DNA from: Alphaproteobacteria bacterium
GTDB taxonomy: Bacteria > Pseudomonadota > Alphaproteobacteria > JABAAW01
Direction of reading: 5' to 3'
Length of the DNA: 64,000 nucleotides
Assembly (NCBI GenBank): GCA_965216605.1
Contig: CBDCGG010000002.1
Span: 1,159,871-1,223,870 of the forward strand
Below the pieces are notes generated by a model. The model made no database searches, was not told where the DNA came from, and saw nothing but the letters and a program-made list of their open reading frames with translations. Positions 21,083 to 51,045 of the stretch are shown one piece after another. The translations under genes were made by a program, and so were the position numbers. Positions within the stretch are counted from its first letter, which is position 1. Every line of letters starts with the position of its first letter.

Positions 21083-21182
21083 TATAACAGGATAGGAATG
21101 TTGGAAATGTTGGGTATGTTGTCCGCGTTCGTTCGCGCTTCCTTACGGGCTCTCTCGCGTGGACAACGGATGGTGCGTGCTT

Positions 21183-21358
21183 ACTACACCCTCGCAAGCC
21201 AAAGGCTTGCGTATGGGGGGTGTGGGGGGACGAAGTTCCCCCGCAAAAACGCGCCGCGAGCGGGCGCGTTAGCGCCTTCTACGCGCGTAGCGCGTAGCCT
21301 CTTAATACTTAAAAGCGCGTTTCGCAGAAACGCGCAAGCAGCCTTGCGGTTTTACGAT
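21183..21358. repeat. Dispersed modular palindromic repeat, copy R1 (modules B+C, partial)
   Basis: ggggggtgtggggggacgaagttcccccgcaaaa...gcgccttctacgcgcgtagcgcgtagcctctta shared with at least 8 other loci. Confidence 0.75.
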
Positions 21359-21415
21359 GGTAAGAAACTTTGGTTTACATCATCGACTTGGGGAGGGTGG
21401 TGTTTTGCGGTTCTT

Positions 21416-22582
21416 TTGTTGGCAGGGGTTGTAATAATAGCAATTGTTTATCTTTCTTTAATTCCTAAAGATGCCGACACCATTAAGTACTTAGAACTTT
21501 ATGCGGTGATTGTCATTGGACTTATGTCTCTTTATATTGCAGGGTCGAGCTTTTGGGCAAAACAAGGCAGCGCGTTTTTTGTGGAATATCAAACAGCAAA
21601 GGATATGAATGTTGTTGACTTGTTTACATCTTCTAATATATTAGAAGATGCTATTGGCAATCCTGCAAACTCTACCATGCCTTATGTAAAAAGAATCTAC
21701 ATACGCAATGAAAAAAACAAACACGAGGCAATTAAAAGAATTTTATTGCAATTGCCAAACGAACAGACTCTTGTTTTAAAAGAATATAAAAAAGCCGACG
21801 CTCTTCTTATAAAGCCCTATGAAGCCAAGGTATTAAAATTAAATGCGGTAACATTTTATTTTAAGGAATATGACTTGACTCATGTAGGTAGAGGAAACTT
21901 TTTTTTTGATGATAATTTTGTGTATACTATTAAGGATGAAGAAATTCTTCGGAGCGGAAAAATTATTGTCGAAACAGCGCAAGGGCAGTCCTGTATTAAA
22001 AATAATAACAAGCCAATTTCATTTTGCAGCGAAAAGAATTTATTAAAACCAAGTAGATCTTTTTTTGGCATAACTTCCAGCGAACAAGAATTGACTTTTG
22101 GTTTTGATGTTATTTGTTCGCTAGAACTTTTAATGAAAAAAAATTTTGCTGACGATAAAATTTTTAATGACAGCATGCAAAAACAAATTTCTGAATATCC
22201 AAAAATAGCTGAAATGTTTTATAGGAGAGAAGGAGAATTGGCAATTCAAATAGTAATAAATTTATATAATAATATATCCTTATCATACTTTTTCCAAGCC
22301 CACAAAAAAAAATACACCTTACCTGTGCATGCAAATATAAAGAAAGAATTTTATGAGGCGTATAAAAAACATAAATTTTTTCCATTGCCAGCGGTGTTTG
22401 AAAAATCAAAAACCCAAAAAAACCGTATGTCTTTTTTTAATTTTTATTCTTTCTGTGATTCATGGGCAGAAAAAAAATGGGGAAAAAATAAAAGTAAAAT
22501 TTATAATTTTCCACAAGGATATTGCAACCAATTTGCTGTTTGCCAAAAAGAAACAAAAATCATCGACGACTTAAAACCTTAG
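21416..22582 (+). CDS. Hypothetical membrane-anchored protein on low-GC islet (island a); start uncertain
   Basis: About 30% GC over about 1.15 kb against a roughly 62% background. N-terminal TM helix (CFAVLLLAGVVIIAIVYLSLIP) and a second helix, then an about 330-aa K/N/F-rich globular part with no recognisable domain. The six-frame ORF start at 21098 runs through repeat R1 and is rejected; a TTG or internal ATG start is likely. Confidence 0.4.
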   Translation: MLAGVVIIAIVYLSLIPKDADTIKYLELYAVIVIGLMSLYIAGSSFWAKQGSAFFVEYQTAKDMNVVDLFTSSNILEDAIGNPANSTMPYVKRIYIRNEKNKHEAIKRILLQLPNEQTLVLKEYKKADALLIKPYEAKVLKLNAVTFYFKEYDLTHVGRGNFFFDDNFVYTIKDEEILRSGKIIVETAQGQSCIKNNNKPISFCSEKNLLKPSRSFFGITSSEQELTFGFDVICSLELLMKKNFADDKIFNDSMQKQISEYPKIAEMFYRREGELAIQIVINLYNNISLSYFFQAHKKKYTLPVHANIKKEFYEAYKKHKFFPLPAVFEKSKTQKNRMSFFNFYSFCDSWAEKKWGKNKSKIYNFPQGYCNQFAVCQKETKIIDDLKP

Positions 22583-22810
22583 CTCCTCGTCGTGTTGCGA
22601 GTCAGCTTGCGCACGGCAAGCCGTGCGCTTTTGAATAAGAGGCTACGCACTTCGCTTCGCTCGTGCGTAGATAAAGCGCTTACGCGCTCGCTCGCAGCGG
22701 GCTTTTTGCGGGGGGACTGCGTCCCCCCACGCCCCCCATGCGCAAAACTCACTTCGCCCAAAACTCATCTTAAGGCTCGCTCGTCTTGCGTTCTCCCGTC
22801 AATAATAAAA
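22583..22810. repeat. Dispersed modular repeat, copy R2 (inverted orientation; modules C+B)
   Basis: agtcagcttgcgcacggcaagccgtgcgcttttgaataagaggctacgca... ...ggggggactgcgtccccccacgcccccc, the reverse complement of the R1/R3 modules. Confidence 0.75.
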
Positions 22811-22845
22811 CGCCCCTTCTCTGCGTAAAGTGCTACAATCCCCCC

Positions 22846-24054
22846 ATGTCCTCCTCCTCCCAAATATCCCCCGCCGCACAGCACAAGCTCGACACAAGAA
22901 TGATGCACTCCGCAATCTCCCTCGCACGCTCCGCACAAGGCTCAACCTTCCCAAATCCACCCATAGCCTGCATAATCGCCCATTCCGAAACTATCATCGC
23001 CTTCGCAACAACAGCACCCTCAGGAAGACCCCACGCCGAAACTCAAGCCCTGAAAATAGCCGCCGCAGCAGCCAAAGGAGCAACCCTCTACACAACCTTG
23101 GAGCCCTGCACCCACACCAATAAACACAATACTCCCCCCTGCTGCATATCTATCGCCTCCTCAAAAATCTCCCGCGTCTGCTACCCACTACAAGACCCAG
23201 ACCCCCGAACAAACGGAACATGTAAAAAAATACTGGAATCTAACAATATCGAAGTTACAGAAAATCTCTGCACAAAAGAAGCCACTCAACAACTCTTACC
23301 CTATCTGAAACGAACCCAGAAAAATCTCCCCTTCCTAACACTCAAACTCGCCGCATCCATAGACGGAAAAATCTCCGCATCCTCAAATCTATACCCCAAC
23401 AAACAAACCCACATCAGCAGCGACAAAGCACGCATCTACCGAAACTCCCTCCTCAGACAATTCGATGCCATCCTCATCGGAGCGCAAACAATGCGCTCAG
23501 ATAATCCTAAACTCCTGCTCGACGATAACTTCCACACACAACAGAAACATCCCTTCGCGCCCATCAGGATAATCCTCGACGGAGGGCTAACCATCCCCCT
23601 AGAAAGCAAGCTCGTCCAAACCCTCGACCAAGCCCCCCTCTGGATACTCACCCGCGCCTCCGAAGAAGCTAGCGACAAAGGTACAGCCCTCAAAAATAGC
23701 GGCGTCCGACTAATTCCCATACCAGCCCTCTCCAAACAAGGCGGAGGCGTACGACTATCCCTGCCCCACGCCCTCAGCACGCTCGCCCAAGAAGGTATAG
23801 CATCCATACTCTGCGAAGGTGGAGCAAAACTCGCTCACGCACTCCTACATGAAAATTTGCACGAAAATTTAGTAGACCAACTCATCCTCTTCTCCGCTCC
23901 CCACGCGCTAGGCGCACAAGGACGCTCCATGTTTGAAGGTACCGACGCGCAACGCATCAATTTCCAACTAGAAGAATCTATCTCCTTAGGAGACGACGAA
24001 GTGCGCACCTTCCGTATCCAAAAAAATAACTATATAAAAAATAATCATGTTTAG
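22846..24054 (+). CDS. ribD: Bifunctional riboflavin biosynthesis protein RibD (deaminase/reductase)
   Basis: Deaminase motifs HAETQAL and TLEPCTHTNKHNTPPC, then a reductase domain. The coding strand is extremely G-depleted (C/A-rich). Confidence 0.8.
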   Translation: MSSSSQISPAAQHKLDTRMMHSAISLARSAQGSTFPNPPIACIIAHSETIIAFATTAPSGRPHAETQALKIAAAAAKGATLYTTLEPCTHTNKHNTPPCCISIASSKISRVCYPLQDPDPRTNGTCKKILESNNIEVTENLCTKEATQQLLPYLKRTQKNLPFLTLKLAASIDGKISASSNLYPNKQTHISSDKARIYRNSLLRQFDAILIGAQTMRSDNPKLLLDDNFHTQQKHPFAPIRIILDGGLTIPLESKLVQTLDQAPLWILTRASEEASDKGTALKNSGVRLIPIPALSKQGGGVRLSLPHALSTLAQEGIASILCEGGAKLAHALLHENLHENLVDQLILFSAPHALGAQGRSMFEGTDAQRINFQLEESISLGDDEVRTFRIQKNNYIKNNHV

Positions 24055-25225: not shown

Positions 25226-25768
25226 ATGTCGAAGGTATCGAAGGCGGAGGCAGAGTTGATGGTACGGCGGGCTACTCGGTTAGCTGCGTTGCAGATATTG
25301 TATGGTCAGCAGTTCAAGGGGGAAACTTTGTATCAGACAGATCCTTATTGGGATGAGGATGAGGGGAGGGATGGAGACAATATTAATAAGTTTGAGAACA
25401 CGCGGAGTGATAGGGTATTTTTGGCGAAGTTGTTATCTTGTGCTAGAACGAATCGGAGAGTTTTGCAGGGGTGGTTATCGGATCGTGTTGTTGGGAGGTC
25501 TTGGGAGAATGTAGATTTGTTGTTGCGGTTGATTATGTGGCTGGGTGTTGCGGAGATGGTATTGGTAAGTATAGACGAGGCTGGCAAAGGAATGGGAACA
25601 GGCAAAGTTAGATTAGGGAGATTAGCGGGAGAGTATTGTGGGATGACTAGTTTATTTTATGATGATGCGGGGGTTATAGGGTTAGTTAATGGTGTGTTGG
25701 ATGGGGCTGCTAAAAGTGATTTGGGGAAGGTCTTGCGGGGGGAGGGTATTGCGAAGGGGGAGGGCTAG
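25226..25768 (+). CDS. nusB: Transcription antitermination factor NusB
   Basis: …ATRLAALQILYGQQFKGE… NusB fold. Conserved ribH-nusB-thiL synteny. Confidence 0.8.
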   Translation: MSKVSKAEAELMVRRATRLAALQILYGQQFKGETLYQTDPYWDEDEGRDGDNINKFENTRSDRVFLAKLLSCARTNRRVLQGWLSDRVVGRSWENVDLLLRLIMWLGVAEMVLVSIDEAGKGMGTGKVRLGRLAGEYCGMTSLFYDDAGVIGLVNGVLDGAAKSDLGKVLRGEGIAKGEG

Positions 25769-25774
25769 TTGTGA

Positions 25775-26045
25775 TAGGTTTTTTGTCTGTTGCGCTCGCG
25801 CTTGTGCTTTTTAAAGGCACGCGCTCGCGCAACAGATTTGCTTTGTATGATGACGGATGCAAAACATGCGCACGCGAAGCGTGCGCGGGGGGTGTGGGGG
25901 GATAAATTCCCCCCACGAAGACCCCGCGTCAGCGGGGGGAATTTGTCCCCTCGCGCACGCAGTGCGCTTTCTACACACTTTGCGCGAAGCGCAAAGTGTG
26001 TAGCCTCTTATTCAAAAGCGCACGGCTTGCCGTGCGCAAGCTGAC
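25775..26045. repeat. Dispersed modular repeat, copy R3 (modules A+B+C)
   Basis: gtctgttgcgctcgcgcttgtgctttttaaaggcacgcgctcgcgcaacaga... ggggggtgtggggggataaattccccccacgaagaccccgcgtcagcgg ...gtgtagcctcttattcaaaagcgcacggcttgccgtgcgcaagctgactc. Confidence 0.8.
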
Positions 26046-26138: not shown

Positions 26139-27140
26139 GTGTCTTTCTCCGAATCTACCCTCATCGCACAATATATCGCTCCACATATATCATCTCCGCT
26201 CGCAAAAAATTTGCTCGACGATACCGCACTCATACCCCCGCCTCCAGCAAACTGCTCCTACGCCGTCTCAACCGACACAATCGTCGAACATATCCATACC
26301 CTCCCCTCAACATCTCCCCAAGCCTACGCACAAAAAATTCTCGCAGCAAACCTCTCCGACCTCGCAGCCCAAGCCGCCAAACCCCTCGCTATACTCCTCT
26401 CCCTCACAATCCCCAAACAAAAAGCCGAACGCTTCATTAAAGAATTCTCCCCAGCCTTCGCATTAGGTTGCAAACAAAACAACCTCCTCTGGCTCGGAGG
26501 AGACCTCACAACAACACCCCACAATATCTGCATCTCCGCTACCATCATCGGAGCATCACAAAAAAATATCGACCCCAAAAGAGCCAACGCCAAAAATAAC
26601 GACATCATCCTCATAACAGGAGAACTCGGCGAAGCAGCACTCGGACTCAAAGTCCTCCAAGAAACAGCCCCGCAACAACGCACCCGCGCTCAACGAAAAG
26701 CAGCCCTTCGCTACAACAACCCCACCGCCCGATGGAAAGAAGCCCTGCTAATCGCTCCCTACGCGAACGCCATGATGGATATCTCCGACGGACTGGTAGC
26801 CGACCTCACAAAACTCTGCTCCGCAGCACAACTCGGAGCAGACCTCTGTCTTCCCTCAATCCCCATCGCGAAAACCCTCATGGAAACACTTCCCGCACAC
26901 CAAGCCCTCGCCATCGCTATCTCTAGCGGCGAAGACTTCGAACTGCTCGTCACTGCCTCCCCCGAAAACTACGAAATCCTGCAAAAAAAATTAGCCAGCA
27001 AAACAGCGACCCAAACATCTCTTTTGTCCCTCACCCGCATCGGAACGCTCAACAACAACAAGGGCAAAATCCGCTACCTCGATGCCTCCCAAAAAGAAAC
27101 ACCTCCCCCCAAACACAAAGGCTACGACCACTTCGCCTGA
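26139..27140 (+). CDS. thiL: Thiamine-monophosphate kinase
   Basis: AIR-synthase-related/ThiL architecture (…DDTALIPPP…, …LWLGGDLTTTP…, …NDIILITGELGEAALG…). Follows nusB. Coding strand is G-depleted. Confidence 0.7.
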   Translation: MSFSESTLIAQYIAPHISSPLAKNLLDDTALIPPPPANCSYAVSTDTIVEHIHTLPSTSPQAYAQKILAANLSDLAAQAAKPLAILLSLTIPKQKAERFIKEFSPAFALGCKQNNLLWLGGDLTTTPHNICISATIIGASQKNIDPKRANAKNNDIILITGELGEAALGLKVLQETAPQQRTRAQRKAALRYNNPTARWKEALLIAPYANAMMDISDGLVADLTKLCSAAQLGADLCLPSIPIAKTLMETLPAHQALAIAISSGEDFELLVTASPENYEILQKKLASKTATQTSLLSLTRIGTLNNNKGKIRYLDASQKETPPPKHKGYDHFA

Positions 27141-29280: not shown

Positions 29281-29712
29281 TATTATTGACGCACACGGCA
29301 AGCCGTGCGCTATGCATGCTCGCGCAACAGACACGAGCTTTTTGTATTAAACGGCAAAACGCAAGACGAGCGAGCCGTAGGCGAAGTGAGTTTTGCGCAT
29401 GGGGGGTGTGGGGGGACGAAGTTCCCCCGCAAAAGACCCCGCGTCAGCGGAGCGCCATAGCACACGGCTTGCCGTGTGCGTCCATGATATGTTGGTGCGC
29501 CTTCTACGCGCGTAACCCGAAGGGTTACGCGCGTAGCCTCTTATTCAAAAGCGCGAGGCTTGCCTCGCGCAATACTGACTTTTAACATGGTAAGGCGATT
29601 CGAGTTTTCCTAGCCCTAGCGACAAAAAAAATCGCGCGCAGTGCGCCTCTTATTCAAAAGCGCGAGGCTTTGCCTCGCGCAAACTGACTCCTACCATGGC
29701 AGAGCAGCTTTG
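29281..29712. repeat. Dispersed modular repeat, copy R4 (composite: A'+B+C+C)
   Basis: Contains gcacggcaagccgtgcgc, ggggggtgtggggggacgaagttcccccgcaaaagaccccgcgtcagcgg, and two copies of cctcttattcaaaagcgcgaggcttgcctcgcgcaa(t/a)actgact. Confidence 0.8.
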
Positions 29713-29730: not shown

Positions 29731-32121
29731 CTATTTGTTTCCGCTTTTAAGAATAGCATCATAGAAAGTCTTGTCATGGTATTTTATCATTTTAAAAATT
29801 ATCTTTAAATTTTTCTGTAAATGCAAAAAACTTTCTGATGTTTTGGAGTGGCTGTCAGGATGAATGCGATCATTTAAATTCAGCACAATTGTTTCTACAG
29901 AAAATATTTCTGGATTTTTTTTCCAAAGACTACTTAAACTATTTACAAGAGATTTACCTTCTGCTTTCCAAATGTTCACATACATTTCTAGGAATGTCCT
30001 GACCATGTTGGGAGCGCTAATGCATTCGTCTTCGTTTATTACTTCAGCTTCCATAATGTCATGAAGTTTTTTAAACAAATAAGGAAACAAGGCAGAGCTA
30101 TTTTCTATTACCTTTGGCATTTTAATAAGTTTAGTTTTTAAGTTTACATCTTTTTCAAGCATATACAAAGAACATCCGTATTTTTTTGAGTCTTTGTTTA
30201 TTGGAGGTTGTTTAACCCAATAAATAACTCTTTCGAGAAAGTTTAAATCGTGTGTTAAGATAAAAACTTGCCTTGCTGAAGAAATTTTTTTTCTCATAGT
30301 AATAAACATACCATAAAAATTAATAGTATCAAGGCTGGACACAGGATCGTCGATAATAATTCTTGTGTTAGGAATTATAAATTTATTGCCTTGTTCGTCT
30401 GTTCTTTCAAGTGAAAAAAGAAAATACAAAAATACAATTACATTAATTTCCCCTTCACTTAAAGAATCCACACTGGCTTTTTTCTTATTTCTAAATATTT
30501 CATAGCCAGAAATTTTGCCGCCAGCTGCTTTCAGCTGCAACACGTTGTATCCGAAAAAATTATTTAATTCAGTATTAATTTTATTTGAAAATTCTAATAT
30601 ATTATACATTTTTTTTTCATTTTCAACAATACAACTTTCCATTTTTTCCATGGCAACATCAATTGTCTTCAATGGGCTGGTTTCCGAAAAATTATCTTCG
30701 CAAAGAAAGTTTATTTCTTCTATGTTTATACGATTTTTATAAAAATCTTTCATTCCCTCAGCGATTTTATGAGAAATTAGTTTTTTTCCTGCAATATTCA
30801 TTTTTTGTTCAATTTTAAGCTGGTTGTCATTGAATATTAAAATCATTCTATTGATTTTTTCTAATATTTCTTTCAGATACGTTTTGCTTTTATTTAATGT
30901 TTCAATAATAATAGGCGCGACATTTTTCTTTATGTATATTTGATTTTTCTTTGATTGTATTTTTTCTTTAAGATTGTCGATAGCATTCAAATAACCACTT
31001 ATTTTTTCTGAAAAATCAAGCTGAATTTTTTCTATTTCTACTTTTTGCCCTGAATCAAAAAAAGTAAAGTTATCTATATGAATTTTATAATGCGTAATTT
31101 TTTCTTTTTGCTGCTCAAGGCATGTAGAGTCATTTTCTAATTTTTGTATCAAAGCATTTGTGTCTGGATTGAAATGTTTTTTTAATTTATCAATTAATTG
31201 GGATGATATTGTATTTTCGCAAAATTCACATTTCTCTTTTTTGTCAGCGTGAATTTCCAATCCTAATTTTACCCAATTAGATACTGTGCCTTCCATATCC
31301 ATTACCCTTTTGTCGACTTCGCCTTCAGGTATAGAAGACAAGTGTTCTGCCATTTCGTCGTAGTTAATTTCTTCTGGATAGTAAATTTTATACATAGGGT
31401 TTTCTGATTTTCTGTCGATATCTTGCTCAAAATTAATATATTGTGTGTTGTCTAATATTTCGTTTTCTATTTTATCTTTAAAGCTATTTAAATCTCTATT
31501 CACTTTAGATTTTTCATAATTTGCAACATCAAGATTTTTTCCGTATTGCGTGCCTCTGAAAAATGTTTTAATGTTGACGGCTATGTTTTTCATGCACTCT
31601 TCGTAAATATATATTCGGATTTGCTTTAATTTTGCAATTTTTACTTTCAAGCTTCTATTAGCATCTAATAATTTTATTTGTGGCTCTCCTAGCATAATTT
31701 TTTTTATATTCTTCTCCTGAAGATTTTCTGGAAAAAAATTATCTTTAACATACTCTCTATCAAATAAAGCGATATGCTCATCTTCCGTTTCGTTTTTGTC
31801 GATTTCAAATTCAACTGAAAGTCCCATGTCTTTGTAATAATTTTCTTGCTCGTCATTTTTGTAAGAAAGCAAGCGTGAAAAAATTGTTTTTCCAACCCCG
31901 TTTAATCCAAAAATCACGTTGCGGTCTGAAAAATCAAAATTTTTACATGCGTTTTCGTTCCAAGAGAAGTCCCTAAAAACCCATTCAGTATCAGGAGCAC
32001 TACTGTATTTGCTGATAACTCCTTCATCGAGAGTAATTTTTTTTATCTTCCTCAACATTTTCTTTCTCCTCGCAAAGCGTTTTGCTTTCTTAGAAATAGC
32101 ACAAGTTTTTTCTCCTGTCAA
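29731..32121 (-). CDS. RloC-like anticodon nuclease / AAA_13-type ABC ATPase with Zn-hook coiled coil (low-GC island b)
   Basis: 796 aa at about 30% GC. Walker A NVIFGLNGVGKT near the N-terminus, a long coiled-coil insertion with CxxC (KEKCEFCENT) zinc-hook, Walker B/D-loop IIIDDPVSSLD, H-loop ILTHD, then an about 150-aa C-terminal domain (PrrC/RloC-like ACNase region). Confidence 0.6.
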   Translation of the reverse strand: MTGEKTCAISKKAKRFARRKKMLRKIKKITLDEGVISKYSSAPDTEWVFRDFSWNENACKNFDFSDRNVIFGLNGVGKTIFSRLLSYKNDEQENYYKDMGLSVEFEIDKNETEDEHIALFDREYVKDNFFPENLQEKNIKKIMLGEPQIKLLDANRSLKVKIAKLKQIRIYIYEECMKNIAVNIKTFFRGTQYGKNLDVANYEKSKVNRDLNSFKDKIENEILDNTQYINFEQDIDRKSENPMYKIYYPEEINYDEMAEHLSSIPEGEVDKRVMDMEGTVSNWVKLGLEIHADKKEKCEFCENTISSQLIDKLKKHFNPDTNALIQKLENDSTCLEQQKEKITHYKIHIDNFTFFDSGQKVEIEKIQLDFSEKISGYLNAIDNLKEKIQSKKNQIYIKKNVAPIIIETLNKSKTYLKEILEKINRMILIFNDNQLKIEQKMNIAGKKLISHKIAEGMKDFYKNRINIEEINFLCEDNFSETSPLKTIDVAMEKMESCIVENEKKMYNILEFSNKINTELNNFFGYNVLQLKAAGGKISGYEIFRNKKKASVDSLSEGEINVIVFLYFLFSLERTDEQGNKFIIPNTRIIIDDPVSSLDTINFYGMFITMRKKISSARQVFILTHDLNFLERVIYWVKQPPINKDSKKYGCSLYMLEKDVNLKTKLIKMPKVIENSSALFPYLFKKLHDIMEAEVINEDECISAPNMVRTFLEMYVNIWKAEGKSLVNSLSSLWKKNPEIFSVETIVLNLNDRIHPDSHSKTSESFLHLQKNLKIIFKMIKYHDKTFYDAILKSGNK

Positions 32122-33442: not shown

Positions 33443-34417
33443 ATGTCGGAAATTTCTTCAGAAAGTCCTCGTTATGCTTTTGTCGGGCTAGGGGCGTTGG
33501 GCTTTCATCTTGCCAGCTGTTTGGCACGAGCGGGCTTTACGCTGTTTGTGCATGACCTCGATGCTTCTAGGGGGGATGCCTTGTTACGAAGGCTGGAGGA
33601 GCAGGAAGACAAAAATGGAAACAAAGGAGGAGCGGAGAATGTAAGGGTTTGTTCTTCGGTAGCGGAGGTTGTTGCGGAGGCGGATGCTTTGATAACTTGC
33701 TTGCCTACTCCGAGTGCGGCGCGGAGTGTTATTGAGGAGGCGGTCGGAGTTTTATCGGCGGGCAGTTTATGGATTGAGATGAGTACGAACGATCCTTGTG
33801 CCTTGCGAGAGATGGCGGAGTTTGCTAAGGGGGAGGGAATTGAGACTTTGGCGGTACCTGTGACGGGGGGCGTTCATCGCGCGGCGGCGGGGGAGATAAC
33901 TTTGTTGATCGGGGGTGATGAGAAATTATGGAAGGCGCACAGGGGAGCATTCGATGCGATGGGGGGAAAGCAGATATGGATAGGTTCTTTGGAGCAGGCT
34001 GCCGAGATTAAGGCGATTACGAACATGTTAGCGTTTGTTCATTTGGCTGCTGCGGGGGAGGCGATGGCTTTGGCGCAGGCGAGCGGGGTTGATTTGGGGG
34101 TAGCATTTGAGGCGATAAGTCATAGTTCGGGAAATTCGTTTGTTTTTGAGACGGAGGGGCAGGTGATTTTGAATGGGAGTTATCATATTGATTTCACGAT
34201 GGATTTGGCATTGAAGGATTTGGGTTTTGTGCGGGCTTTGGCGGAGCGGAAGGGGATTCCTCTGTCGTTGGCTAGTTTGGTGGAGGAGATATTTATCAAG
34301 GCTAGGGAGGAATATGGGGGTGCGGCTCAGTCACCGAGGATTGTGAAATTGTTGGAGGAGAGGATTGGGAGGGAGTTTCGCGCGAGGGGGTTTCCGGGGG
34401 TGTTGCCGCCGGGGTGA
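33443..34417 (+). CDS. 3-hydroxyisobutyrate dehydrogenase-family NAD(P)-dependent oxidoreductase
   Basis: Rossmann motif AFVGLGALGFHLASCLARAGF and a 6PGDH-like C-terminal domain. Coding strand is C-depleted. Confidence 0.7.
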   Translation: MSEISSESPRYAFVGLGALGFHLASCLARAGFTLFVHDLDASRGDALLRRLEEQEDKNGNKGGAENVRVCSSVAEVVAEADALITCLPTPSAARSVIEEAVGVLSAGSLWIEMSTNDPCALREMAEFAKGEGIETLAVPVTGGVHRAAAGEITLLIGGDEKLWKAHRGAFDAMGGKQIWIGSLEQAAEIKAITNMLAFVHLAAAGEAMALAQASGVDLGVAFEAISHSSGNSFVFETEGQVILNGSYHIDFTMDLALKDLGFVRALAERKGIPLSLASLVEEIFIKAREEYGGAAQSPRIVKLLEERIGREFRARGFPGVLPPG

Positions 34418-36826: not shown

Positions 36827-38380
36827 ATGTCCGAATCAGCCGCCATCCCCCATACGCCCCCCATCTCCCAGCTTCCCACAGCCAATGGAGAAACACCCCC
36901 GCCCGTATCCTCCGCTGCGACTGCCCTCGCCGAAACGACCTCGCCGTTGCAACTCGAAGAAGTCGAACAAGCCCTGCTAGGTGCCATGCTCCGCAATAAC
37001 CGAGTCTACGACGACCTCGCCGATAAACTCTCTGACGAAGACTTTCATCACCCCGCCCATCAAATCATCTACAAAACGCTCGGCGAACAAGCACTCCGCG
37101 GACAACAAGCAAATGCCCTAACCCTCGCCTATCTGCTCTCCGACGACGAAGCCCTTTCCGCACAAGGCGGCGCAGAATATCTCTCCTACCTAGAAAACGC
37201 ACTCCTCCCCAGCGTCCCGAAAGACTACGCCCGAATCCTCCGCGATCTCCGCCTCAGACGAAACCTCGTCGATATAGGACAAACAACATCCGCTAAAGCA
37301 CAAAAAGTCGAACCCCAAGTGCAAGCCGATGCGCTCATCGAAGAAGCCGAAGAAAAACTCTTCAATCTAGCTACCATCGGAGAACAAGAACAAATCCTAC
37401 ACGATATCGGATCAGCATCCGAAAACGCTCGGCAAATCGCAGAAAGAGCCATGGAGCGAAAACGAGACCTCGTCGGAATCAATACAGGATTTACCAAACT
37501 CAATCAAATGCTAGGAGGACTCCACGACTCAGATCTCGTCATATTAGCTGGCAGACCTTCGATGGGTAAAACCGCGCTCGGACTAACTATCGCCTACAAC
37601 GCCGCCCAACAAGTCGTGCGAGATCCCGAAGAGCCCGGACGCACACTCTTCTTCTCGTTGGAAATGTCGGCAGAACAACTCGCAACAAGGCTCATCGCCG
37701 CGCACTCAGGTATATCCAACGATAGGATCCGCCGCGGAGAAATACGACGCGACGACTTCGAAAAAATATCCGAAGCATCTCGCTACATGGCAGAACTGCC
37801 CCTATACATCGACGATAGCGCAGCGCTCAGCGTCAGCGCGCTCCGCCAACGCGCGCGTCGAGCGAAAAGGCAGAAAAATATCGATCTCATCGTCGTAGAC
37901 TATCTACAATTATTACATCTGGCGCACGGAGAGTATCGTGAGAATCGTGTTCAAGAAGTCTCCAGTATAACGCGCGCCCTCAAGGCGTTGGCGAAGGACT
38001 TAAATATACCTGTGCTTGTGCTCTCGCAGCTCTCGCGTGAGGTGGAGAAGCGCGAACCTCCGCGTCCGCAGCTCTCCGACTTGCGCGATTCGGGCGCGAT
38101 CGAGCAGGATGCCGATGTCGTCATGTTTGTCTATCGAGAAGCATACTACCTCGCGCGCAAAGCTCCCGAACAGCGCGAGGAAGAAAGTATCGAGCAGTTT
38201 CAAGCTCGCCACAAACGCTACCTAGATCTGTTAGAGCCAAAGCGCAACAAGGCAGAGCTGTTGATTTCCAAACAGCGACACGGACCCGTCGGCACGGTGG
38301 AGCTCTTCTTCGATGGAAATCTCGCGCGCTTTGCTAACTTGGAGACCGCAGAGCGAGAAGAGAACGAAAGCGGCTTTTGA
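36827..38380 (+). CDS. dnaB: Replicative DNA helicase DnaB
   Basis: DnaB N-terminal domain, Walker A GRPSMGKTAL, Walker B DLIVVDYLQLL. 517 aa. The 5' about 1 kb is G-depleted. Confidence 0.9.
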   Translation: MSESAAIPHTPPISQLPTANGETPPPVSSAATALAETTSPLQLEEVEQALLGAMLRNNRVYDDLADKLSDEDFHHPAHQIIYKTLGEQALRGQQANALTLAYLLSDDEALSAQGGAEYLSYLENALLPSVPKDYARILRDLRLRRNLVDIGQTTSAKAQKVEPQVQADALIEEAEEKLFNLATIGEQEQILHDIGSASENARQIAERAMERKRDLVGINTGFTKLNQMLGGLHDSDLVILAGRPSMGKTALGLTIAYNAAQQVVRDPEEPGRTLFFSLEMSAEQLATRLIAAHSGISNDRIRRGEIRRDDFEKISEASRYMAELPLYIDDSAALSVSALRQRARRAKRQKNIDLIVVDYLQLLHLAHGEYRENRVQEVSSITRALKALAKDLNIPVLVLSQLSREVEKREPPRPQLSDLRDSGAIEQDADVVMFVYREAYYLARKAPEQREEESIEQFQARHKRYLDLLEPKRNKAELLISKQRHGPVGTVELFFDGNLARFANLETAEREENESGF

Positions 38381-38435: not shown

Positions 38436-39611
38436 TTGCGTGCTCGGATAACCTTTGATGAGGAGGCTTTGTCTGCCAATGTTGCGTTGATGCGCGGCGT
38501 TTGCGGAGGTGCGGCGTTACATGCGGTTATCAAGGCGGGTGCTTACGGGTTAGGCGCGGGGTTTGGAGGGTTAGATTGGCTTACGGACAAATTGCTCGCA
38601 TTGGGTTGTAGCGCGTTTGTTTTTGCGGAGTGGGAGGCGGCGGTTTCGGTGAGGGCGCGTCATCCTTCGGTTTCTTGCTTTGCTTTGAACGGAATTGTAG
38701 GGCGCGAGGATGCGGAGGGTTGTTTGGAGCATGGCATTCTGCCTGTTCTCAACACTTTGGATTCGTGGCATTTGTGGCAGGAGGTTTCGGCAAAAATTTC
38801 AGGAGGGATTTCAGGAGGAATTTCAGAAGGTGTTTCAGAAGGAAATGCGCCTTACGCGCTGCATGTAGATACGGGTATGAATCGGTTGGGATTAAGGGAG
38901 GAGGAGGCAAGGGTTGTTGCTGAGAAGTTGCGCGAGGGGGGAGTTATGTATTCTCCGATGTGGTTGATATCTCATTTAGCTTGTGGGGATGATCAGGTAT
39001 CTTCTTACAATTTGGAGCAGTTAGAGAAATTTAAAAAAATATGTCTTTTATTTCCTGATTCGCTCAAGAGTTTTGCTAATTCTGCGGGTTGTTTTTTGGG
39101 GGAGGAGTATCATTTTGATGCGGTTCGGGTGGGGGCTAGTTTGTATGGATTGAATCCTGTTAGGCGGTTTCGAGATGGCGGGGGTTATAGGGAGAGTGAT
39201 AGGGGGAGATTGCGGAATGTTGTTTCTATTGATGCTCCGATTATTCAGGTGCGGGATGTTGGGATTGGGGAGGCTGTGGGTTATGGGTGTCGGTGGGTTG
39301 CTAGGCGAGATAGCAGGATTGCGATTGTTGCTTTTGGGTATGGGGATGGGTATCCGTTTTGTTGTGGGGGTAGTGGGGTATATCAGGAGGGTATTTTGGG
39401 AGGGGGTTGTGTTCGGGTTGTGGGTCGTGTATCGATGGATTTATTGGCGATGGATGTGACGGATTTGGGGGTTGGGTATGGGGTTGGGGATTATGTTGTT
39501 TTGTTGGGGGGGGGGATTAGTGCGGAGCGGATTGCGTGGGGTGCGGGAGATTTGAATTACAATGTTTTGGGGGGTATGGGGAGTAGGGGGTTGGGGAGGG
39601 CTTTGTGTTGA
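38436..39611 (+). CDS. alr: Alanine racemase
   Basis: PLP-Lys region (…AVIKAGAYGLGAG…) and C-terminal beta domain (…GRVSMDLLAMDVTD…). Contains an ISGGISGGISEGVSEGN insertion. Coding strand C-depleted. Confidence 0.7.
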   Translation: MRARITFDEEALSANVALMRGVCGGAALHAVIKAGAYGLGAGFGGLDWLTDKLLALGCSAFVFAEWEAAVSVRARHPSVSCFALNGIVGREDAEGCLEHGILPVLNTLDSWHLWQEVSAKISGGISGGISEGVSEGNAPYALHVDTGMNRLGLREEEARVVAEKLREGGVMYSPMWLISHLACGDDQVSSYNLEQLEKFKKICLLFPDSLKSFANSAGCFLGEEYHFDAVRVGASLYGLNPVRRFRDGGGYRESDRGRLRNVVSIDAPIIQVRDVGIGEAVGYGCRWVARRDSRIAIVAFGYGDGYPFCCGGSGVYQEGILGGGCVRVVGRVSMDLLAMDVTDLGVGYGVGDYVVLLGGGISAERIAWGAGDLNYNVLGGMGSRGLGRALC

Positions 39612-40110
39612 GCGCGCTTGCTTGTGTGTTGAGCGTGTTTGTCTCTGCTTGCTTGCGCTACCTTGCGGGCGCGCTACGCAGAGACAGACACGCGCTTTTT
39701 TGATTAGGGCTGTGCTGTGGATTTTTGTTTTTGTGGTGTGTATCTGGTTTTGTTTGTCTGTTGCGTTCGCGCTTGTGCTTTTTAATGGCACGCGCTTACG
39801 CAACAGACTTGCTTTGTATATTGACGGATGCAAAACATCGTGCGCGTAGCGCACGGGGAGCGCGAGGGAGTAATCCCTCGCAAAAGACCCCGCGTCAGCG
39901 GGGCGCGATAGCGCCTTCTACGCGCGTAGCGCGTAGCCTCTTATTCAAAAGCGCGAGGCTTGCCTCGCGCAAGCTGACTCGTAACATTGTACGGCGATTC
40001 TGTTTTCCGCTCACCTAGAGACAAAAAGAATCGCACGAAGTGCGCCTCTTATTCAAAAGCGCGAGGCTTGCCTCGCGCAAGCTGACTCGCAACGCGACAC
40101 AGTGCTACTA
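39605..40110. repeat. Dispersed modular repeat, copy R6 (largest composite: A+B+C+C)
   Basis: All three modules present. Module C is duplicated (39925-39975 and 40045-40095) with gcgcgaggcttgcctcgcgcaagctgactcg. Confidence 0.8.
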
Positions 40111-40121
40111 TTTTTTAAAAA

Positions 40122-40802
40122 TCATTCAATATCTATTCCTTTTGTTTTTATTTTTTTTGCTAGTTCTTGACCTTTCTCAATTTGTTCTTCATTCAAGGAT
40201 TTTTTTAAATCTTCTTTTTTTTGAATTGCCATTTTATGCCCTGAAGAAGAGGCAAGCAGAAACATCGCATAAGATAGAAGAATGCTTTGTTTAATAGTTC
40301 CTTTCCCACTATAAAAAATGATTCCTAAATTATATTGTGCGTCAGCGCATCCTTGATTTGCAGATTTTTTATACCACTTAAATGCTTCTTTGTAATCCTC
40401 GACTGTTTGCTCCCCTCTTTCATACATTTTGCCTAAATCGTTTTGTGCTTGAGCATGTCCTTTTTTGGCTGCTTTCTCAAGCCAAAAAAACGCTTCGCTA
40501 TTATCGTTTGCTACCCCGTCTTCTGTTTTACTCCTTAAACTTAATTGGTGTTGAGATTCTGAATCACCATCATCTGCACTACGCTTTAGATTTCTTAGTT
40601 GCTTTTTCTTTTCATTAATTCTCTCCTCTTCTTCACGCTTAGAATTATACGAAAGACAAAAACAATAAAGAGCAATAGCAAAAAACACAAAAAAAGCTGG
40701 ATCCTCTTCTAAACCAAGGATTCCAAAAAAAATCGTCAGAGAGCCTGAAATATACATTTCTTGTAAATCTGTTCGAGAATTTATATTTTGTTTGCTATCC
40801 AT
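40122..40802 (-). CDS. Sel1-like repeat (SLR) protein with N-terminal transmembrane helices (low-GC island c, gene 2)
   Basis: At least two Sel1 repeats (…AQNDLGKMYERGEQTVEDYKEAFKWYKKSANQGCADAQYNLGIIFYSGKG…) preceded by two hydrophobic helices. Start MDSKQNI overlaps the upstream gene stop by 8 nt. Confidence 0.6.
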   Translation of the reverse strand: MDSKQNINSRTDLQEMYISGSLTIFFGILGLEEDPAFFVFFAIALYCFCLSYNSKREEEERINEKKKQLRNLKRSADDGDSESQHQLSLRSKTEDGVANDNSEAFFWLEKAAKKGHAQAQNDLGKMYERGEQTVEDYKEAFKWYKKSANQGCADAQYNLGIIFYSGKGTIKQSILLSYAMFLLASSSGHKMAIQKKEDLKKSLNEEQIEKGQELAKKIKTKGIDIE

Positions 40803-41775
40803 TATCGTCCCGAAGATCCATAAGGCTTTTTCCCTTATAATACCAATAATAAGGACCTCTAACATTACTGAGCTCTCGTTCTTTTTTTGTTAAAACTTCT
40901 CCCGCCGCAGCTGATAAAGTCATTTCTCTACCTTCATAAATAATTTTTTTTCTGCTTTTGTTTGTATCGCTTTCTGGGGCAACAGTGCAGGTTGTATTTT
41001 CGTCGTCAAGGAAAATTAATTTTTCCCCATCTTTTATTTCCACCATATTAAAATTAAAATTTTCAATATTTCTTCTTTCTTTTTCTTGCGCGTTGCCGAC
41101 ATTTTTTTTCTCGTCTTCGTTTTCAGCAATGTATTCATTTTTTATTGTAACTGGCTCATGCGCTAAATTTAACAATGCAGGTCGAGCGTCTTCAGGGGAC
41201 ATTTCAAAAAATTCTCTGCTCTTGTTAATTATTTTTTCCTTAAATTTTTCATGCAAATAGTTTTCTGCTTTATTGCAATCTTTCACTTTTATTGCACAGT
41301 CGAATTCAAAACGAAGAGGAACGCCCGTAGCACTAGAAAGAGCGTTTATTCTCTTCTCTACGCTGTCTGTCGTTTTTCCTATCTTGATAAGACCTTTCAT
41401 ACGAGGATTGGTGAGAATATAAACTATTCCTTCTCGTTCGTTTTTCAAGGAGTCTTGCGTCTCTTTTTCTTTACTTTCAAGTCTCTCTTTACGTTGTTGC
41501 AGGATTTCATCTTCGTACAACCAATTCAAAAGCGGTGCAAAACTTCCACGAATCTCTGTGTCGCGAATCACGCTGTAGATGTAATTCGTTAACTCGGTGA
41601 TTTTTCTACTTTCATCTTCGATGTCTCCAAATTCATACCTTACGGCTCGTTCACCATCTAAAACCACGCAAGTATGGTTTATATTCTCTTTGTGATAAAG
41701 CCTTGCACCCACTGGAATTTTCAATCCATCGAAGGTGAAGATTTTTTTGGTGGGTGTTTTTTCTATTTCAGTCAT
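40795..41775 (-). CDS. T5orf172 (MUG113, GIY-YIG-like) domain protein with flanking DUF4357-like modules (low-GC island c, gene 1)
   Basis: Central motif EGIVYILTNPRMKGLIKIGKTTDSVEKRINALSSATGVPLRFEFD. The N- and C-terminal about 50-aa modules resemble each other (…FDGLKIPVGARLYHKEN…VRYEFGDI / …IKDGEKLIFLDDEN…IIYEGREMTLSAAAGEVL…). Confidence 0.6.
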   Translation of the reverse strand: MTEIEKTPTKKIFTFDGLKIPVGARLYHKENINHTCVVLDGERAVRYEFGDIEDESRKITELTNYIYSVIRDTEIRGSFAPLLNWLYEDEILQQRKERLESKEKETQDSLKNEREGIVYILTNPRMKGLIKIGKTTDSVEKRINALSSATGVPLRFEFDCAIKVKDCNKAENYLHEKFKEKIINKSREFFEMSPEDARPALLNLAHEPVTIKNEYIAENEDEKKNVGNAQEKERRNIENFNFNMVEIKDGEKLIFLDDENTTCTVAPESDTNKSRKKIIYEGREMTLSAAAGEVLTKKERELSNVRGPYYWYYKGKSLMDLRDDNG

Positions 41776-47984: not shown

Positions 47985-48791
47985 GTGAAAGAGTCGAAGG
48001 AGTTGAAAGAGTTGAAGGAGTTGAAGGGGTTGGAGGGCTTGCGATTGTTGTTGACGGGTGCTTCGAGGGGTTTGGGCAGGGCATTGGCGATGAGCTTTGC
48101 AGAGCGAGGGGTGAGGCTGATCTTAACGGGGCGCACGCAGGGGGGGCTGGCAGAGGTATCGAAGGAGATTGTAGAAAGGGGGTTTCCTGCTCCTGTGGTT
48201 GTTGCCTTGGATTTACGAGAGGGGACAGAGAAAGGCGCAGAGGGAGGCTCTGATACGGGGACGGGAGGAGGGAGTAGAATAGAGTTATTGGGGGGAATGA
48301 TTGCGGAGCGGATCGGGGGATTGGAGGGAATTATTTTGAATGCGGCGTTATTGGGGGAGTTATCTCCTGTTGCGCATGGGGATGGGGATATGTGGAGGGA
48401 GGTATTTGATGTGAATGTGTTTGCTAATCGGAAATTAATAGAGAGTGTGCATGGATTGTTGTGTATGTCGGGGGGTTTTGTTATTGGGGTTACTTGTGGG
48501 GAGAAGCGGGGTGGAGCTTATTGGGGATGTTATGGGGCTTCTAAGGCGGCGATGGAGGTTATGTTGGAGAGTTATGGGAGGGAGTGTGAGAAGTTAGGTA
48601 TAAGTGTTGCGTGTTGGGATCCGGGGAGGATGTCTACGGGGTTGCGGGGTAGTGCGTATCCGGGTGAATCTGTGGGCAAGGAGGGGGAGAATAATAATGG
48701 GAAGTATCCGATAACGGGGGAGACTGGTAGGGGCTGTGTAGAGATTGTGGAGGAGTGGGTTAGACGGAGGCGGGAGGGGGGAGGTAGTTAG
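47985..48791 (+). CDS. Short-chain dehydrogenase/reductase (SDR) family oxidoreductase
   Basis: TGASRGLGRA cofactor motif and catalytic YGASKAA. Coding strand C-depleted. Confidence 0.7.
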   Translation: MKESKELKELKELKGLEGLRLLLTGASRGLGRALAMSFAERGVRLILTGRTQGGLAEVSKEIVERGFPAPVVVALDLREGTEKGAEGGSDTGTGGGSRIELLGGMIAERIGGLEGIILNAALLGELSPVAHGDGDMWREVFDVNVFANRKLIESVHGLLCMSGGFVIGVTCGEKRGGAYWGCYGASKAAMEVMLESYGRECEKLGISVACWDPGRMSTGLRGSAYPGESVGKEGENNNGKYPITGETGRGCVEIVEEWVRRRREGGGS

Positions 48792-50224: not shown

Positions 50225-50420
50225 CACCGTCAAGCAAACAGCCCTCTCGTACCCCCCACCCCCCCCGCGCACGCCATAGCGCGTTGCTTGCAACGCGCGT
50301 ACATGATGTTGCTAGCGTGCGCATGTTTTGCATCCGTCATAATACAAAGCCCGTCTGTTGCGTGAGCGCGTGCCTTTAAAAAGCACAAGCGCGAGCGCAA
50401 CAGACAAGACAAGGCCAGAC
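50225..50420. repeat. Dispersed modular repeat, copy R7 (inverted orientation; modules B-like+A)
   Basis: ccccccaccccccccgcgcacgccatagcgcg...atgttttgcatccgtcataatacaaagcccgtctgttgcgtgagcgcgtgcctttaaaaagcacaagcgcgagcgcaacagac is the reverse complement of module A. Confidence 0.75.
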
Positions 50421-50493
50421 ACGCTCAACTCCACAAAGAAAACAGAAAACAAAAACTCCCCCAAAAACCCTCCAAAAACCACTTCCGAAACCC

Positions 50494-51045
50494 CTACTTC
50501 CTCCGCAGCCCCAGCCCCTCCCCCTGTCCCGCAACTGCCTCCAATTCCGCACACCCCGCACGCATCCCCTCAATAATATCCCCAATCCCACTCGGATACT
50601 CCTCAACACGCCGTGTCCGCAAATTCACATATCCGTAAATCCACTCCGAAATCGCCGCAATATAATCTCCCTCGCTACCGCCCTCATCCCTCGCATAATG
50701 CAACCACAAAACATGAAACAATTTCCCGTTCGCTCCCAATACCCTCCCCTCAAACGATAACCGATAACCCTCCCTTACCTCCCGCCGATACCTTATCTGC
50801 GTCTCTAATGTGAAAAAGGAAGCCCCAACCCGTTCCCGATACTCCCCGTCAATACCCATCTCCTCCAACAAAGAAAACGAAGCATCCGACGCGCTAGAAA
50901 TATACCACGCAACATTCATATGTCCGTTCGCATCTAAAGACTCGCGCCCCACAATCCCACCCCCAACCCGAAATGGATAGGACAACTGCTCGCTCACGCG
51001 CCCGCGCTCCGCTGCCTCAACAAACGACGAGCCTCCGCAAGACAC
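50494..51045 (-). CDS. 4HBT/YbgC-type hotdog-fold acyl-CoA thioesterase (true start probably internal)
   Basis: …SLDANGHMNVAWYISSASDA… matches the DxNxHxNN hotdog motif. The N-terminal about 25 aa overlap the upstream ORF and are probably not translated. Confidence 0.5.
   Translation of the reverse strand: MSCGGSSFVEAAERGRVSEQLSYPFRVGGGIVGRESLDANGHMNVAWYISSASDASFSLLEEMGIDGEYRERVGASFFTLETQIRYRREVREGYRLSFEGRVLGANGKLFHVLWLHYARDEGGSEGDYIAAISEWIYGYVNLRTRRVEEYPSGIGDIIEGMRAGCAELEAVAGQGEGLGLRRK

Follow-up and report, generated by a model that had tools for sequence, protein, structure and literature searches.

The 64,000-nucleotide stretch of DNA analysed here (the window) carries a gene for a protein of the RloC family of anticodon nucleases. 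We put at about 85% the probability that this is a functional-looking RloC, inserted horizontally as a single gene from a low-GC donor between an aldehyde dehydrogenase (Aldedh) gene and an enolase-superfamily (MR_MLE) gene. The analysis establishes its family membership, architecture, motif conservation, intactness and foreign composition; its nuclease activity, tRNA target, zinc binding, trigger and anti-phage role are proposed by homology and are discussed as such below.

Architecture of the protein

Residue conservation was read from homolog alignments of 51 and 74 sequences. The features of the protein, in order from its N-terminus, are the following.

31885..31908, minus strand: Walker A / P-loop GLNGVGKT, aa 51-58, read from the sequence
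30553..31686, minus strand: helical (coiled-coil type) insert, aa 125-502, splitting the ABC head in the AF2 model
31171..31275, minus strand: hook motif WVKLGLEIH...CEFC...HF, aa 262-296, with the CxxC at aa 277-280 (31219-31230)
30448..30462, minus strand: ABC signature LSEGE, aa 533-537, with G536 and E537 invariant in 74 homologs
30328..30360, minus strand: Walker B and D-loop IIIDDPVSSLD, aa 567-577, read from the sequence
30247..30255, minus strand: H-loop / switch THD, aa 602-604, with H603, and also Q597, invariant in 74 homologs
29734..30114, minus strand: C-terminal all-helical anticodon-nuclease (divergent HEPN) domain, aa 649-775, from the domain model
29986..30000, minus strand: catalytic-type R687-x3-E691 (RTFLE), from alignment with the family and with ANA-3 RloC
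29860..29862, minus strand: catalytic-type H733; the residue before it is I732, in place of the Ser usual in the family

All the head motifs quoted in the preliminary description (Walker A, Walker B/D-loop and H-loop) are present, and the LSEGE signature is found as well. In the P-loop, N53, G56 and K57 do not vary among the 51 sequences and reach at least 90% conservation among the 74, where D570, D571, P572, S575 and D577 are invariant. In the full-length AF2 model (pLDDT 83), the structures closest to the head by Foldseek were Rad50/SbcC, SMC, PtuA, AriA and LmuB. A helical insert carrying CEFC does split the head, as had been described, but it measures about 380 aa and not about 450, and the CxxC lies off-centre, about 40% of the way along in the AF2 model; given this displacement from the midpoint, a Rad50-style apical hook is only tentative. 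In the family profile the insert is co-linear with residues 121-480 of GkaRloC, the C291 hook included, and the hook pattern of GkaRloC ('EWVREGLGLHKGLECAFCGNK..HF') equals that of the present protein. W262, G266, C277 and C280 are invariant among the 74 homologs, and two structures of the Rad50 zinc hook, 1l8d and 6zff, give a weak profile match to this motif (E 0.005-0.01). By analogy, the CxxC hook may bind zinc.

The model of the C-terminal domain is all-helical (pLDDT 87, pTM 0.81). HEPN toxins account for at least six of its nine best Foldseek matches in the PDB (ranks 1-6 and 9), with probabilities of 0.80-0.91, a TM of 0.45 and a non-significant E of about 0.2, and the Pfam family DUF4145, of the HEPN clan, matches it at E=3.5e-4, below the Pfam cut-off. 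All 33 homologs of the domain match the C-terminal end of AAA_13, and RloC and PrrC have themselves been assigned to HEPN (PMC3710099). The inspection for a catalytic triad proposed in the preliminary description found R687-x3-E691-x41-H733 retained in the family-conserved register: R687 is the same in all 74 homologs, E691 and H733 show at least 90% conservation among them, H733 is invariant in the alignment of the C-terminal domain, and the E691-x41-H733 spacing fits the published x36-52. H737, in the pair S736-H737, was ruled out as the catalytic His, the alignment making H733 the conserved one. Around this residue the protein looks unusual, with Ile in the place of the usual Ser; Ser before the His is frequent in RloC and not required (PMC2610378). 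Moreover, the family consensus is RFxNxxSH, whose Rx6H would fit the canonical Rx4-6H of HEPN proteins, and the Arg seven residues before the His is Leu here, the small subclade that the protein forms with P0016, P0017 and P0019 likewise being without the consensus Arg. By analogy with characterised relatives, the domain would be a nuclease acting on tRNA.

Membership in the RloC family and divergence within it

Davidov & Kaufmann 2008 (PMC2610378) described RloC by ABC motifs, a helical insert with CxxC and Arg-X3-Glu-X36-52-His. ABC motifs, a CxxC insert and the R687/E691/H733 triad are all present here, with C277, C280, D570/D571, H603 and R687 invariant in 74 homologs, a set of motifs far beyond chance. 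The profile search that had been suggested gave a match to Pfam AAA_13 over aa 52-771 at E=1.2e-73. As references vetted by Davidov & Kaufmann 2008 we used residues 121-480 of GkaRloC (Geobacillus kaustophilus, YP_146738), taken from the supplement of that paper, and the full-length ANA-3 RloC from a Shewanella plasmid (YP_863754 / WP_011711575). The homolog profile aligned co-linearly with the former (115 bits, E=1.5e-37) and with every motif in register with the latter (216 bits, E=5e-68), and direct BLASTP gave E=2e-7 and E=7e-11, respectively. With 775 aa, the protein lies within the published family range of 683-897 aa, compared with 804 aa for GkaRloC and 746 aa for ANA-3 RloC; 1,880 representatives of the family have a uniform length of 730-800 aa. 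C277 and R687/E691/H733 correspond to C291 and R692/E696/H737 of GkaRloC (positions from PMC2610378), R651-x3-E655 and S693-H694 of ANA-3 RloC align with the triad, and RloCs share a WV..GL..H...CxFC...HF hook in the insert between the ABC motifs. Membership of the RloC family is thus supported at the sequence level, and the RloC architecture first proposed holds, with the AAA_13 match, the triad and the alignment of both vetted proteins.

The PADLOC candidate system PDC-S06 matches the protein at E=4e-87, and the GkaRloC fragment matches its sub-models PDLC04887, 04894 and 04896 too. PDC-S06 is the RloC family, a practical annotation point for PADLOC. No NCBIfam model for the family was found, nor did a PDB sequence search with the single protein and two profiles find any structure of RloC or PrrC.

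Within this family the protein reads as an extreme sequence outlier that has kept every invariant residue. In a search of 15 billion proteins its nearest relative was 36-38% identical, and its identity to the vetted RloCs is about 22-26%. Word-indexed homolog searches returned 6 and 22 matches, and the closest homolog, P0016, sits on a 2.6-kb metagenome contig. A scan of genome contigs gave one distant locus, in Simiduia litorea (26%), and a scan of viral contigs gave distant relatives only, of at most 27% identity over matches of at least 350 residues and of 30-34% over short segments of the C-lobe.

Such divergence might suggest a distinct ABC-HEPN sister lineage, which would cut another RNA (mRNA, rRNA or another tRNA site) or answer another trigger than GkaRloC does. 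Besides the low identity to vetted RloCs, this reading can draw on the separation of ABC-HEPN proteins into the groups PrrC, RloC, APECO1_4465 and ERFG_01251 by Anantharaman et al. (PMC3710099), on the best PADLOC sub-model being 04894 here and 04887 for GkaRloC, and on the subclade without the consensus Arg before the His. However, GkaRloC also matches sub-model 04894 (E=1e-29), architecture and spacing are the same as in RloC, the motif set found here is the founding paper's own definition of RloC, and the RloCs of that paper are equally distant from one another (PMC2610378). We therefore regard a separate lineage as unlikely, and retain the assignment to RloC.

An intact gene on an AT-rich islet

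The gene and the signals around it are listed below.

29731..32058, minus strand: RloC-family coding sequence, 775 aa plus stop, with ATG at 32058
32066..32070, minus strand: Shine-Dalgarno sequence AGGAG, 7 nt upstream of the ATG
32093..32121, minus strand: putative sigma-70 promoter, from reading of the sequence, at the 5' edge of the islet
29536..29692, minus strand: two terminator-like hairpins in a GC-rich host repeat, directly 3' of the stop codon

The open reading frame given in the preliminary description, 29731..32121 on the minus strand, does exist in the window; its TTG at 32121 is not the start, but opens a -35 hexamer that fits the consensus perfectly, TTGACA (32121->32116, minus strand). 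We place the true start at the ATG at 32058, because an AGGAG lies 7 nt upstream, because the gene has 775 aa in the exact-match database entry P0001 and because the closest homolog P0016 aligns starting at Met1 of this version. The -35 hexamer is followed by a 17-nt spacer and an extended -10 element, TGC-TATTTC (32101->32093, minus strand), so that a sigma-70 promoter upstream of the gene is likely. An automated consensus scan listed no consensus promoter at the gene; it omitted the TTGACA/TATTTC pair because the -10 ends in C. On the 3' side, the hairpins read GCGCGAGGC(A)AAGCCTCGCGC and then TTTTGAATAAGAGG, with stems at 29680-29660 and 29570-29551, and are putative terminators. The frame is intact, with its Shine-Dalgarno sequence, ATG, -35/-10 pair and 3' hairpins followed by T-runs, and these signals make expression plausible.

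The low-GC islet was confirmed and could be delimited sharply. GC is 0.26-0.32 over 30000-32000 and 0.5-0.6 in the flanks, with boundaries at about 29715 and 32100, and the single-gene islet has 29% GC, compared with about 53% for the host. For the gene, GC is 0.291 vs 0.48-0.59 for host genes, and GC3 is 0.271 vs 0.47-0.68. The gene of the nearest homolog is likewise AT-rich (28% GC); a very AT-rich copy within a small GC-rich genome is unlike the vetted RloCs. The islet lies between the Aldedh and MR_MLE genes, and neither a target-site duplication nor an integrase or transposase was found beside it. The host genome is small (1.6 Mb, a contig of 1,625,166 bp) and bears a T3SS, and the host is probably a reduced-genome, host-associated bacterium.

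In such a small genome the gene might be an RloC-derived relic, inactive or decaying and kept by chance after its transfer, and the outlying sequence, the Ser-to-Ile change adjoining the catalytic His and the negative promoter scan could be taken in the same sense. Against this, the 2.3-kb frame is uninterrupted though DNA of 29% GC yields stops easily, every invariant residue of the family is kept, the gene has a Shine-Dalgarno sequence, an ATG, a perfect -35 box and putative terminators, and the AF2 model is confident; a relic is accordingly improbable, and we continue to read the gene as a functional-looking RloC.

A GC-rich host palindromic repeat (the CTCTTATTCAAAAGCGCGAGGCTT element) adjoins the 3' end in three of the four islets of the window, and an identical tandem pair of it occurs at two of them. 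It is unusual that this repeat, with its putative terminators, is docked 3' of rloC as it is at two other islets. We raise, with considerable doubt, the idea that rloC is one of several AT-rich cassettes of one or two genes docked 3'-first on the repeat, which would then be a site of capture or recombination, in loose analogy with attC or REP sites. If true, this would be an unrecognised acquisition mechanism for defence-gene cassettes in a reduced, T3SS-bearing bacterium. Alternatively, the repeat may merely be a spreading terminator element.

Comparison with PrrC, Rad50/SbcC and related systems

The preliminary description had set the gene apart from PrrC by the absence of a type I restriction-modification (R-M) locus. 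No hsd genes or Hsd domains occur among the open reading frames of at least 330 aa in the 64-kb window, as it had stated. This is no anomaly, contrary to what the contrast implied: rloC is usually without R-M linkage and is transferred laterally as single cargo (PMC2610378), so that the absence of hsd genes is the norm. As a class RloC, with GkaRloC, AciRloC of Acinetobacter baylyi and ANA-3 RloC, is likewise a stand-alone, laterally acquired single gene, although ANA-3 rloC adjoins a type I R-M locus, whereas the copy here is without one within 30 kb on either side. Elsewhere in the window, 17 kb away at 48844-50112, there is an orphan fusion of an N6/N4 DNA methyltransferase with T5orf172.

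PrrC (EcoPrrC of E. coli) shares with the protein the Pfam family AAA_13, an ABC N-domain and a C-terminal Arg-x3-Glu...His triad (R320/E324/H356). However, PrrC has about 400 aa and no coiled-coil/zinc-hook insert, compared with 775 aa and an insert of about 380 aa here; it is always found within a silencing type Ic hsd (hsdMSR) locus, whereas Aldedh and MR_MLE genes flank the present one; and it nicks tRNA-Lys without wobble excision, has a PrrC box and senses dTTP (PMC2610378). The PADLOC PrrC model PDLC02360 gave no match to the protein at E<=1, while relatives match it through their C-terminal half (E 1e-7 to 1e-15). Identity with PrrC was ruled out by the length, the insert, the lack of hsd neighbours and the lack of a PDLC02360 match.

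Rad50/SbcC, of the Mre11-Rad50 type of DNA-break sensor, gave the best structural matches of the ATPase head (9bi4, 7zr1, 3qkt and 7yzp), and a CxxC in a long helical insert, with the weak match to 1l8d and 6zff, is common to both. The likeness in sequence is limited to the ABC motifs, the insert here is much shorter than their very long antiparallel coiled coil with its apical hook, and there is an extra C-terminal RNase-type domain. No gene for an Mre11/SbcD-like or phosphoesterase partner adjoins the gene or lies nearby, the flanks being metabolic. Short insert, added domain and missing partner ruled out a Rad50/SbcC identity. A Rad50/SMC-like head, seen in structural and profile matches, is also common to PtuA (Septu/retron), AriA (PARIS), LmuB (Lamassu) and OLD/GajA, in which it senses infection and is coupled to an effector nuclease; that nuclease is either a protein of its own or a TOPRIM/HNH domain, and these systems are without the R/E/H triad of a HEPN-type C-domain and the CxFC hook.

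That the protein is a generic AAA_13 or SMC-like ATPase without RNase function, such as a plasmid/conjugation ATPase or a Rad50/SbcC-like repair protein, is very improbable: the Pfam description of AAA_13 spans heterogeneous proteins, the best plasmid homolog is located among tra genes, the head is most like Rad50/SMC and the HEPN fold match is weak, but the family as a whole conserves the C-terminal domain, its Arg without exception and its Glu and His nearly so, at exactly the positions essential in GkaRloC by mutagenesis, Rad50 and SbcC have no such domain (PMC2610378), and the gene stands among metabolic genes with no Mre11/SbcD-like gene adjoining.

Proposed mechanism and significance

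In published work on GkaRloC, the zinc hook holds the anticodon nuclease inactive and a DNA-dependent ATPase switches it on; wobble excision, in which the tRNA is cut first on the 3' side of position 34 and next on its 5' side, has been established only for GkaRloC (PMC2610378). If it acts like its homologs GkaRloC and AciRloC, the protein would dimerise via its Rad50-like ABC head, and the helical insert, its CxxC hook binding zinc, would silence the C-terminal nuclease. DNA ends or breaks arising from phage infection or genotoxic stress would stimulate the ATPase and free the R687/E691/H733 site, tRNA anticodon loops would be cleaved on the 3' side of the wobble base and afterwards on its 5' side, and translation would stop, aborting the infection. 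The wobble-nucleotide excision and DNA-damage activation named in the preliminary description may hold for this protein by such analogy, as may its proposed trigger and anti-phage function. Double-strand breaks alone did not activate AciRloC in published work, so the activation trigger is uncertain even for the RloC family. Because the silencer would be part of the protein itself, rloC could be movable and would need no hsd partner to work.

The role of RloC as a nuclease of abortive infection and stress is established, and the copy described here adds no new principle. As an outlier with all invariant residues, it helps to delimit the smallest core that is conserved throughout the RloC family. 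For the bacterium itself, our results indicate that even a 1.6-Mb, T3SS-carrying genome takes up stand-alone suicide defence genes of AT-rich donors and retains them.

The RloC-family gene and its product

The preliminary description had reported an open reading frame at 29731-32121, carrying the motifs of an RloC anticodon nuclease. This frame is present and intact on the reverse strand, and all the quoted motifs were found in it. The TTG at 32121 has to give way to an ATG at 32058, which is the true start of the gene. An AGGAG lies upstream of this ATG with a spacing of 7 nt, the database copy of the protein (P0001) has the agreeing length of 775 aa, and the alignment of the closest homolog begins at the same methionine. 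The TTG itself makes up the first three bases of a -35 hexamer, a perfect TTGACA, and 17 nt separate that hexamer from an extended -10 element (TGC-TATTTC). Around the gene the DNA carries plausible promoter, Shine-Dalgarno and terminator signals. Numbered from the ATG, the motifs are:

aa 51-58, Walker A, GLNGVGKT
aa 277-280, zinc hook, CEFC
aa 533-537, signature, LSEGE
aa 567-577, IIIDDPVSSLD
aa 602-604, THD

Comparison with the Pfam AAA_13 profile, suggested in the preliminary description, gave a significant match (E=1.2e-73, residues 52-771 of the 796-aa frame as submitted). The protein also matches PADLOC PDC-S06, a candidate single-gene defence system (E=4e-87), and NCBIfam has no model for it. 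Among 1.84 billion cluster representatives, searched exhaustively with HMMER, 1,880 relatives were identified, with a uniform length of 730-800 aa. Identity to the nearest of them, which comes from a 2.6-kb metagenome contig itself low in GC (28%), is only 36-38% (BLASTP 36%, phmmer 38%); identity to every other relative is 30% or less. W262, G266, C277, C280, R523, G536, E537, D570, D571, P572, S575, D577, Q597, H603 and R687 are invariant in both the 51- and 74-member alignments. In Walker A, N53, G56 and K57 show no variation in the former alignment and are conserved to at least 90% in the latter. A decaying relic is not favoured by the data.

The family is defined by ABC ATPase motifs, a coiled-coil insert with a CXXC zinc hook and a C-terminal triad, Arg-X3-Glu-X36-52-His, in which Ser frequently precedes the His (PMC2610378). 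This triad is present here as R687/E691/H733, E691 and H733 being conserved in at least 90% of the family alignment, and the data do not favour a generic ATPase. The residue before H733 is Ile, not Ser; the nearby S736-H737 was considered and ruled out, as the alignment puts the conserved His at H733.

Comparison with bona fide RloC proteins

Protein searches returned no labelled RloC, and two references were taken from the founding paper. The first was residues 121-480 of GkaRloC (Geobacillus kaustophilus), pieced together from an OCR reading of supplementary Figure 1. The homolog profile matches this fragment co-linearly over profile positions 115-456 (115 bits, E=1.5e-37), with the WV..GL.LH, CxFC and HF landmarks in register. 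GkaRloC (804 aa) carries its hook at C291 and its triad at R692/E696/H737 (PMC2610378), corresponding to C277 and R687/E691/H733 in our 775-aa protein. Fragment and protein share the PADLOC sub-models PDLC04887, 04894 and 04896; therefore PDC-S06 is simply the RloC family under a PADLOC label.

The second reference was the 746-aa ortholog of Shewanella sp. ANA-3 plasmid 1 (Table S1, entry 60), which we placed at NC_008573 110255-112495, next to an IS200/IS605 tnpA in agreement with Table S1. The whole ortholog aligns to the family profile (profile positions 23-737, 216 bits, E=5e-68), and its Walker A, CPFC, LSEGE, VIDDPISSLD and THN motifs, as well as R651-x3-E655 and S693-H694, align to their counterparts here. 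Its hook sequence is that of the 'Q369M3_9GAMM' row in the OCR'd figure, and this agreement validates the figure as a source. The family also includes a protein from a Streptococcus prophage, annotated as 'translation-disabling ACNase RloC'. Together, the profiles, the motif set and the match to two vetted RloCs support the RloC interpretation first proposed, and a functionally shifted sister lineage is not favoured by the data.

In NC_008573 (110255-120386), the ANA-3 gene directly adjoins, besides the tnpA, a complete type I restriction-modification locus (hsdM, hsdS, hsdR), and a Qat defence system follows at a distance of a few kb. The gene illustrates the R-M-linked arrangement, which a minority of rloC genes show.

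Structure and proposed mechanism

The AlphaFold2 model (74-sequence alignment) is confident (mean pLDDT 83, pTM 0.60). It consists of an ABC head, a helical insert that forms a short hairpin at the CxxC, and a C-terminal domain built entirely of helices. The insert spans aa 125-502, which is shorter than the about 450 aa given in the preliminary description. With the whole model, Foldseek against the PDB returned Mre11-Rad50/SbcCD at the top, then SMC heads and the defence ATPases PtuA, AriA and LmuB. The Rad50 zinc-hook fragments 1l8d and 6zff match the family profile weakly (E 0.005-0.01), and searches by sequence, profile and fold found no RloC or PrrC structure in the PDB.

In a separate model of aa 640-775 (pLDDT 87, pTM 0.81), HEPN toxins of HEPN-MNT systems were six of the nine best matches (ranks 1-6, 9; probability 0.80-0.91, TM about 0.45), with E about 0.2, not significant alone. 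[quoted passage not shown] A canonical Rx6H would follow from the family consensus RFxNxxSH; its Arg is absent from this protein and from the nearest relatives.

By analogy with GkaRloC and AciRloC (Acinetobacter baylyi) (PMC2610378, PMC3458546), we infer an RloC-type mechanism, and in the alignments all residues that this scheme requires are conserved. The zinc hook and the DNA-dependent ATPase would form an internal switch keeping the nuclease silent without DNA ends. When phage infection or genotoxic stress produces DNA termini, ATP hydrolysis would be turned on and would release the R/E/H site, which would cut the anticodon loop of the tRNA first 3' and later 5' of the wobble base. Such a lesion would withstand phage tRNA repair, and translation would be shut down.

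A low-GC islet among host genes

The low-GC islet described around the gene was borne out: GC is 29.1% and GC3 27.1%, against 48-59% and 47-68% in surrounding host genes. Composition switches at about 29715 and 32100, within about 50 bp of either end of the frame, so the islet is exactly one gene. Its neighbours are ordinary metabolic genes. Those at one end encode an aldehyde dehydrogenase and a cNMP-binding protein, those at the other an enolase-superfamily protein, a 3-hydroxyisobutyrate-dehydrogenase-like protein and a BCCT transporter. Hsd domains were absent from all frames of at least 330 aa in the 64-kb window, in line with the earlier remark that no hsd genes lie nearby. The preliminary description had made a point of this absence; most rloC genes, however, stand apart from R-M loci, and the solitary position is no anomaly. 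Three further low-GC islets (GC 0.34-0.36) are present:

21098-22582 (+), 494-aa protein, no Pfam match (islet 21.1-22.6 kb)
40122-40865 and 40795-41775 (-), Sel1-repeat protein beside a T5orf172/MUG113 protein (islet 40.1-41.8 kb)
48844-50112 (-), N6/N4 DNA methyltransferase fused to a C-terminal T5orf172, an orphan with no restriction partner seen (islet 48.8-50.1 kb)

A GC-rich palindromic repeat with the core CTCTTATTCAAAAGCGCGAGGCTT occurs at six places in the window (none expected by chance), five of them directly adjoining the 3' end of an islet gene. The six copies and the composite repeats lie at:

22618-22641, 26005-26028, 29538-29561, 29647-29670, 39938-39961 and 40046-40069, palindromic repeat
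about 29390-29692 and about 39800-40090, composite repeat

Identical tandem pairs about 108 nt apart lie behind the RloC and Sel1 genes, where the repeat homology ends 25-40 bp short of the AT-rich DNA. Read in the same direction as the acquired genes, the repeat has the form of a putative intrinsic terminator, a hairpin plus T-run. It could be a docking or capture site for cassettes, or a mobile, spreading terminator or REP-like element. More intergenic repeat families (25790-26044 and 29380-29450; 39562-39849 and 50312-50554) appear as near-identical spurious translations, such as '...GVWGD(K/E)(F/V)PP...PRQR...' and 'LVLF(N/K)GTR(L/S)RNR.ALY.DGCKT'. The host intergenic space is rich in repeated GC-rich elements.

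The host genome

A type III secretion cluster occupies about 1397-17825 (1-18 kb):

8971-10020, SseC-like translocon
12879-13877, SctL stator
13888-15285, SctN ATPase
15813-17825, secretin
1397-2821, 2884-4086 and 4802-5992, large frames with no Pfam match, which may be effectors

This cluster, together with the contig size (1,625,166 bp; 1.63 Mb), suggests that the bacterium is host-associated. Across the 64 kb no Rfam family reached gathering score (no tRNA, rRNA, riboswitch or known sRNA); even the rib genes have no FMN riboswitch ahead of them at that score. The gene for MnmA (53452-54696) lies 21 kb from the RloC gene. MnmA, a tRNA 2-thiouridylase, acts on wobble U34 of tRNA-Lys, -Glu and -Gln, and bases of this class are what anticodon nucleases target; the proximity is almost certainly coincidental.

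Host genes at 19781-51045 show an extreme, gene-specific GC skew at third codon positions (thiL -0.79, ribD -0.73, nusB +0.83, SDR +0.86):

22786-24054, ribD
25226-25768, nusB
26139-27140, thiL
33443-34417, HIBADH
36827-38380, dnaB
38436-39611, alr
47985-48791, SDR

AT skew is opposite in sign, so that codons ending in G/T are used by some genes and those ending in C/A by others. The alternation from gene to gene is striking and independent of strand: in the conserved same-strand strings ribD-ribE-ribH-nusB-thiL and dnaB-alr, the sign flips across boundaries only 23-56 nt apart. Amino-acid composition moves together with the skew. Neither replication-strand bias nor a simple transcription-coupled bias accounts for this pattern.

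To conclude, the gene is a further, highly divergent member of the RloC family, which is already known. Relatives are found on conjugative plasmids and in prophages. The alternation of codon skew in the host genes may be more unusual than the RloC gene itself.
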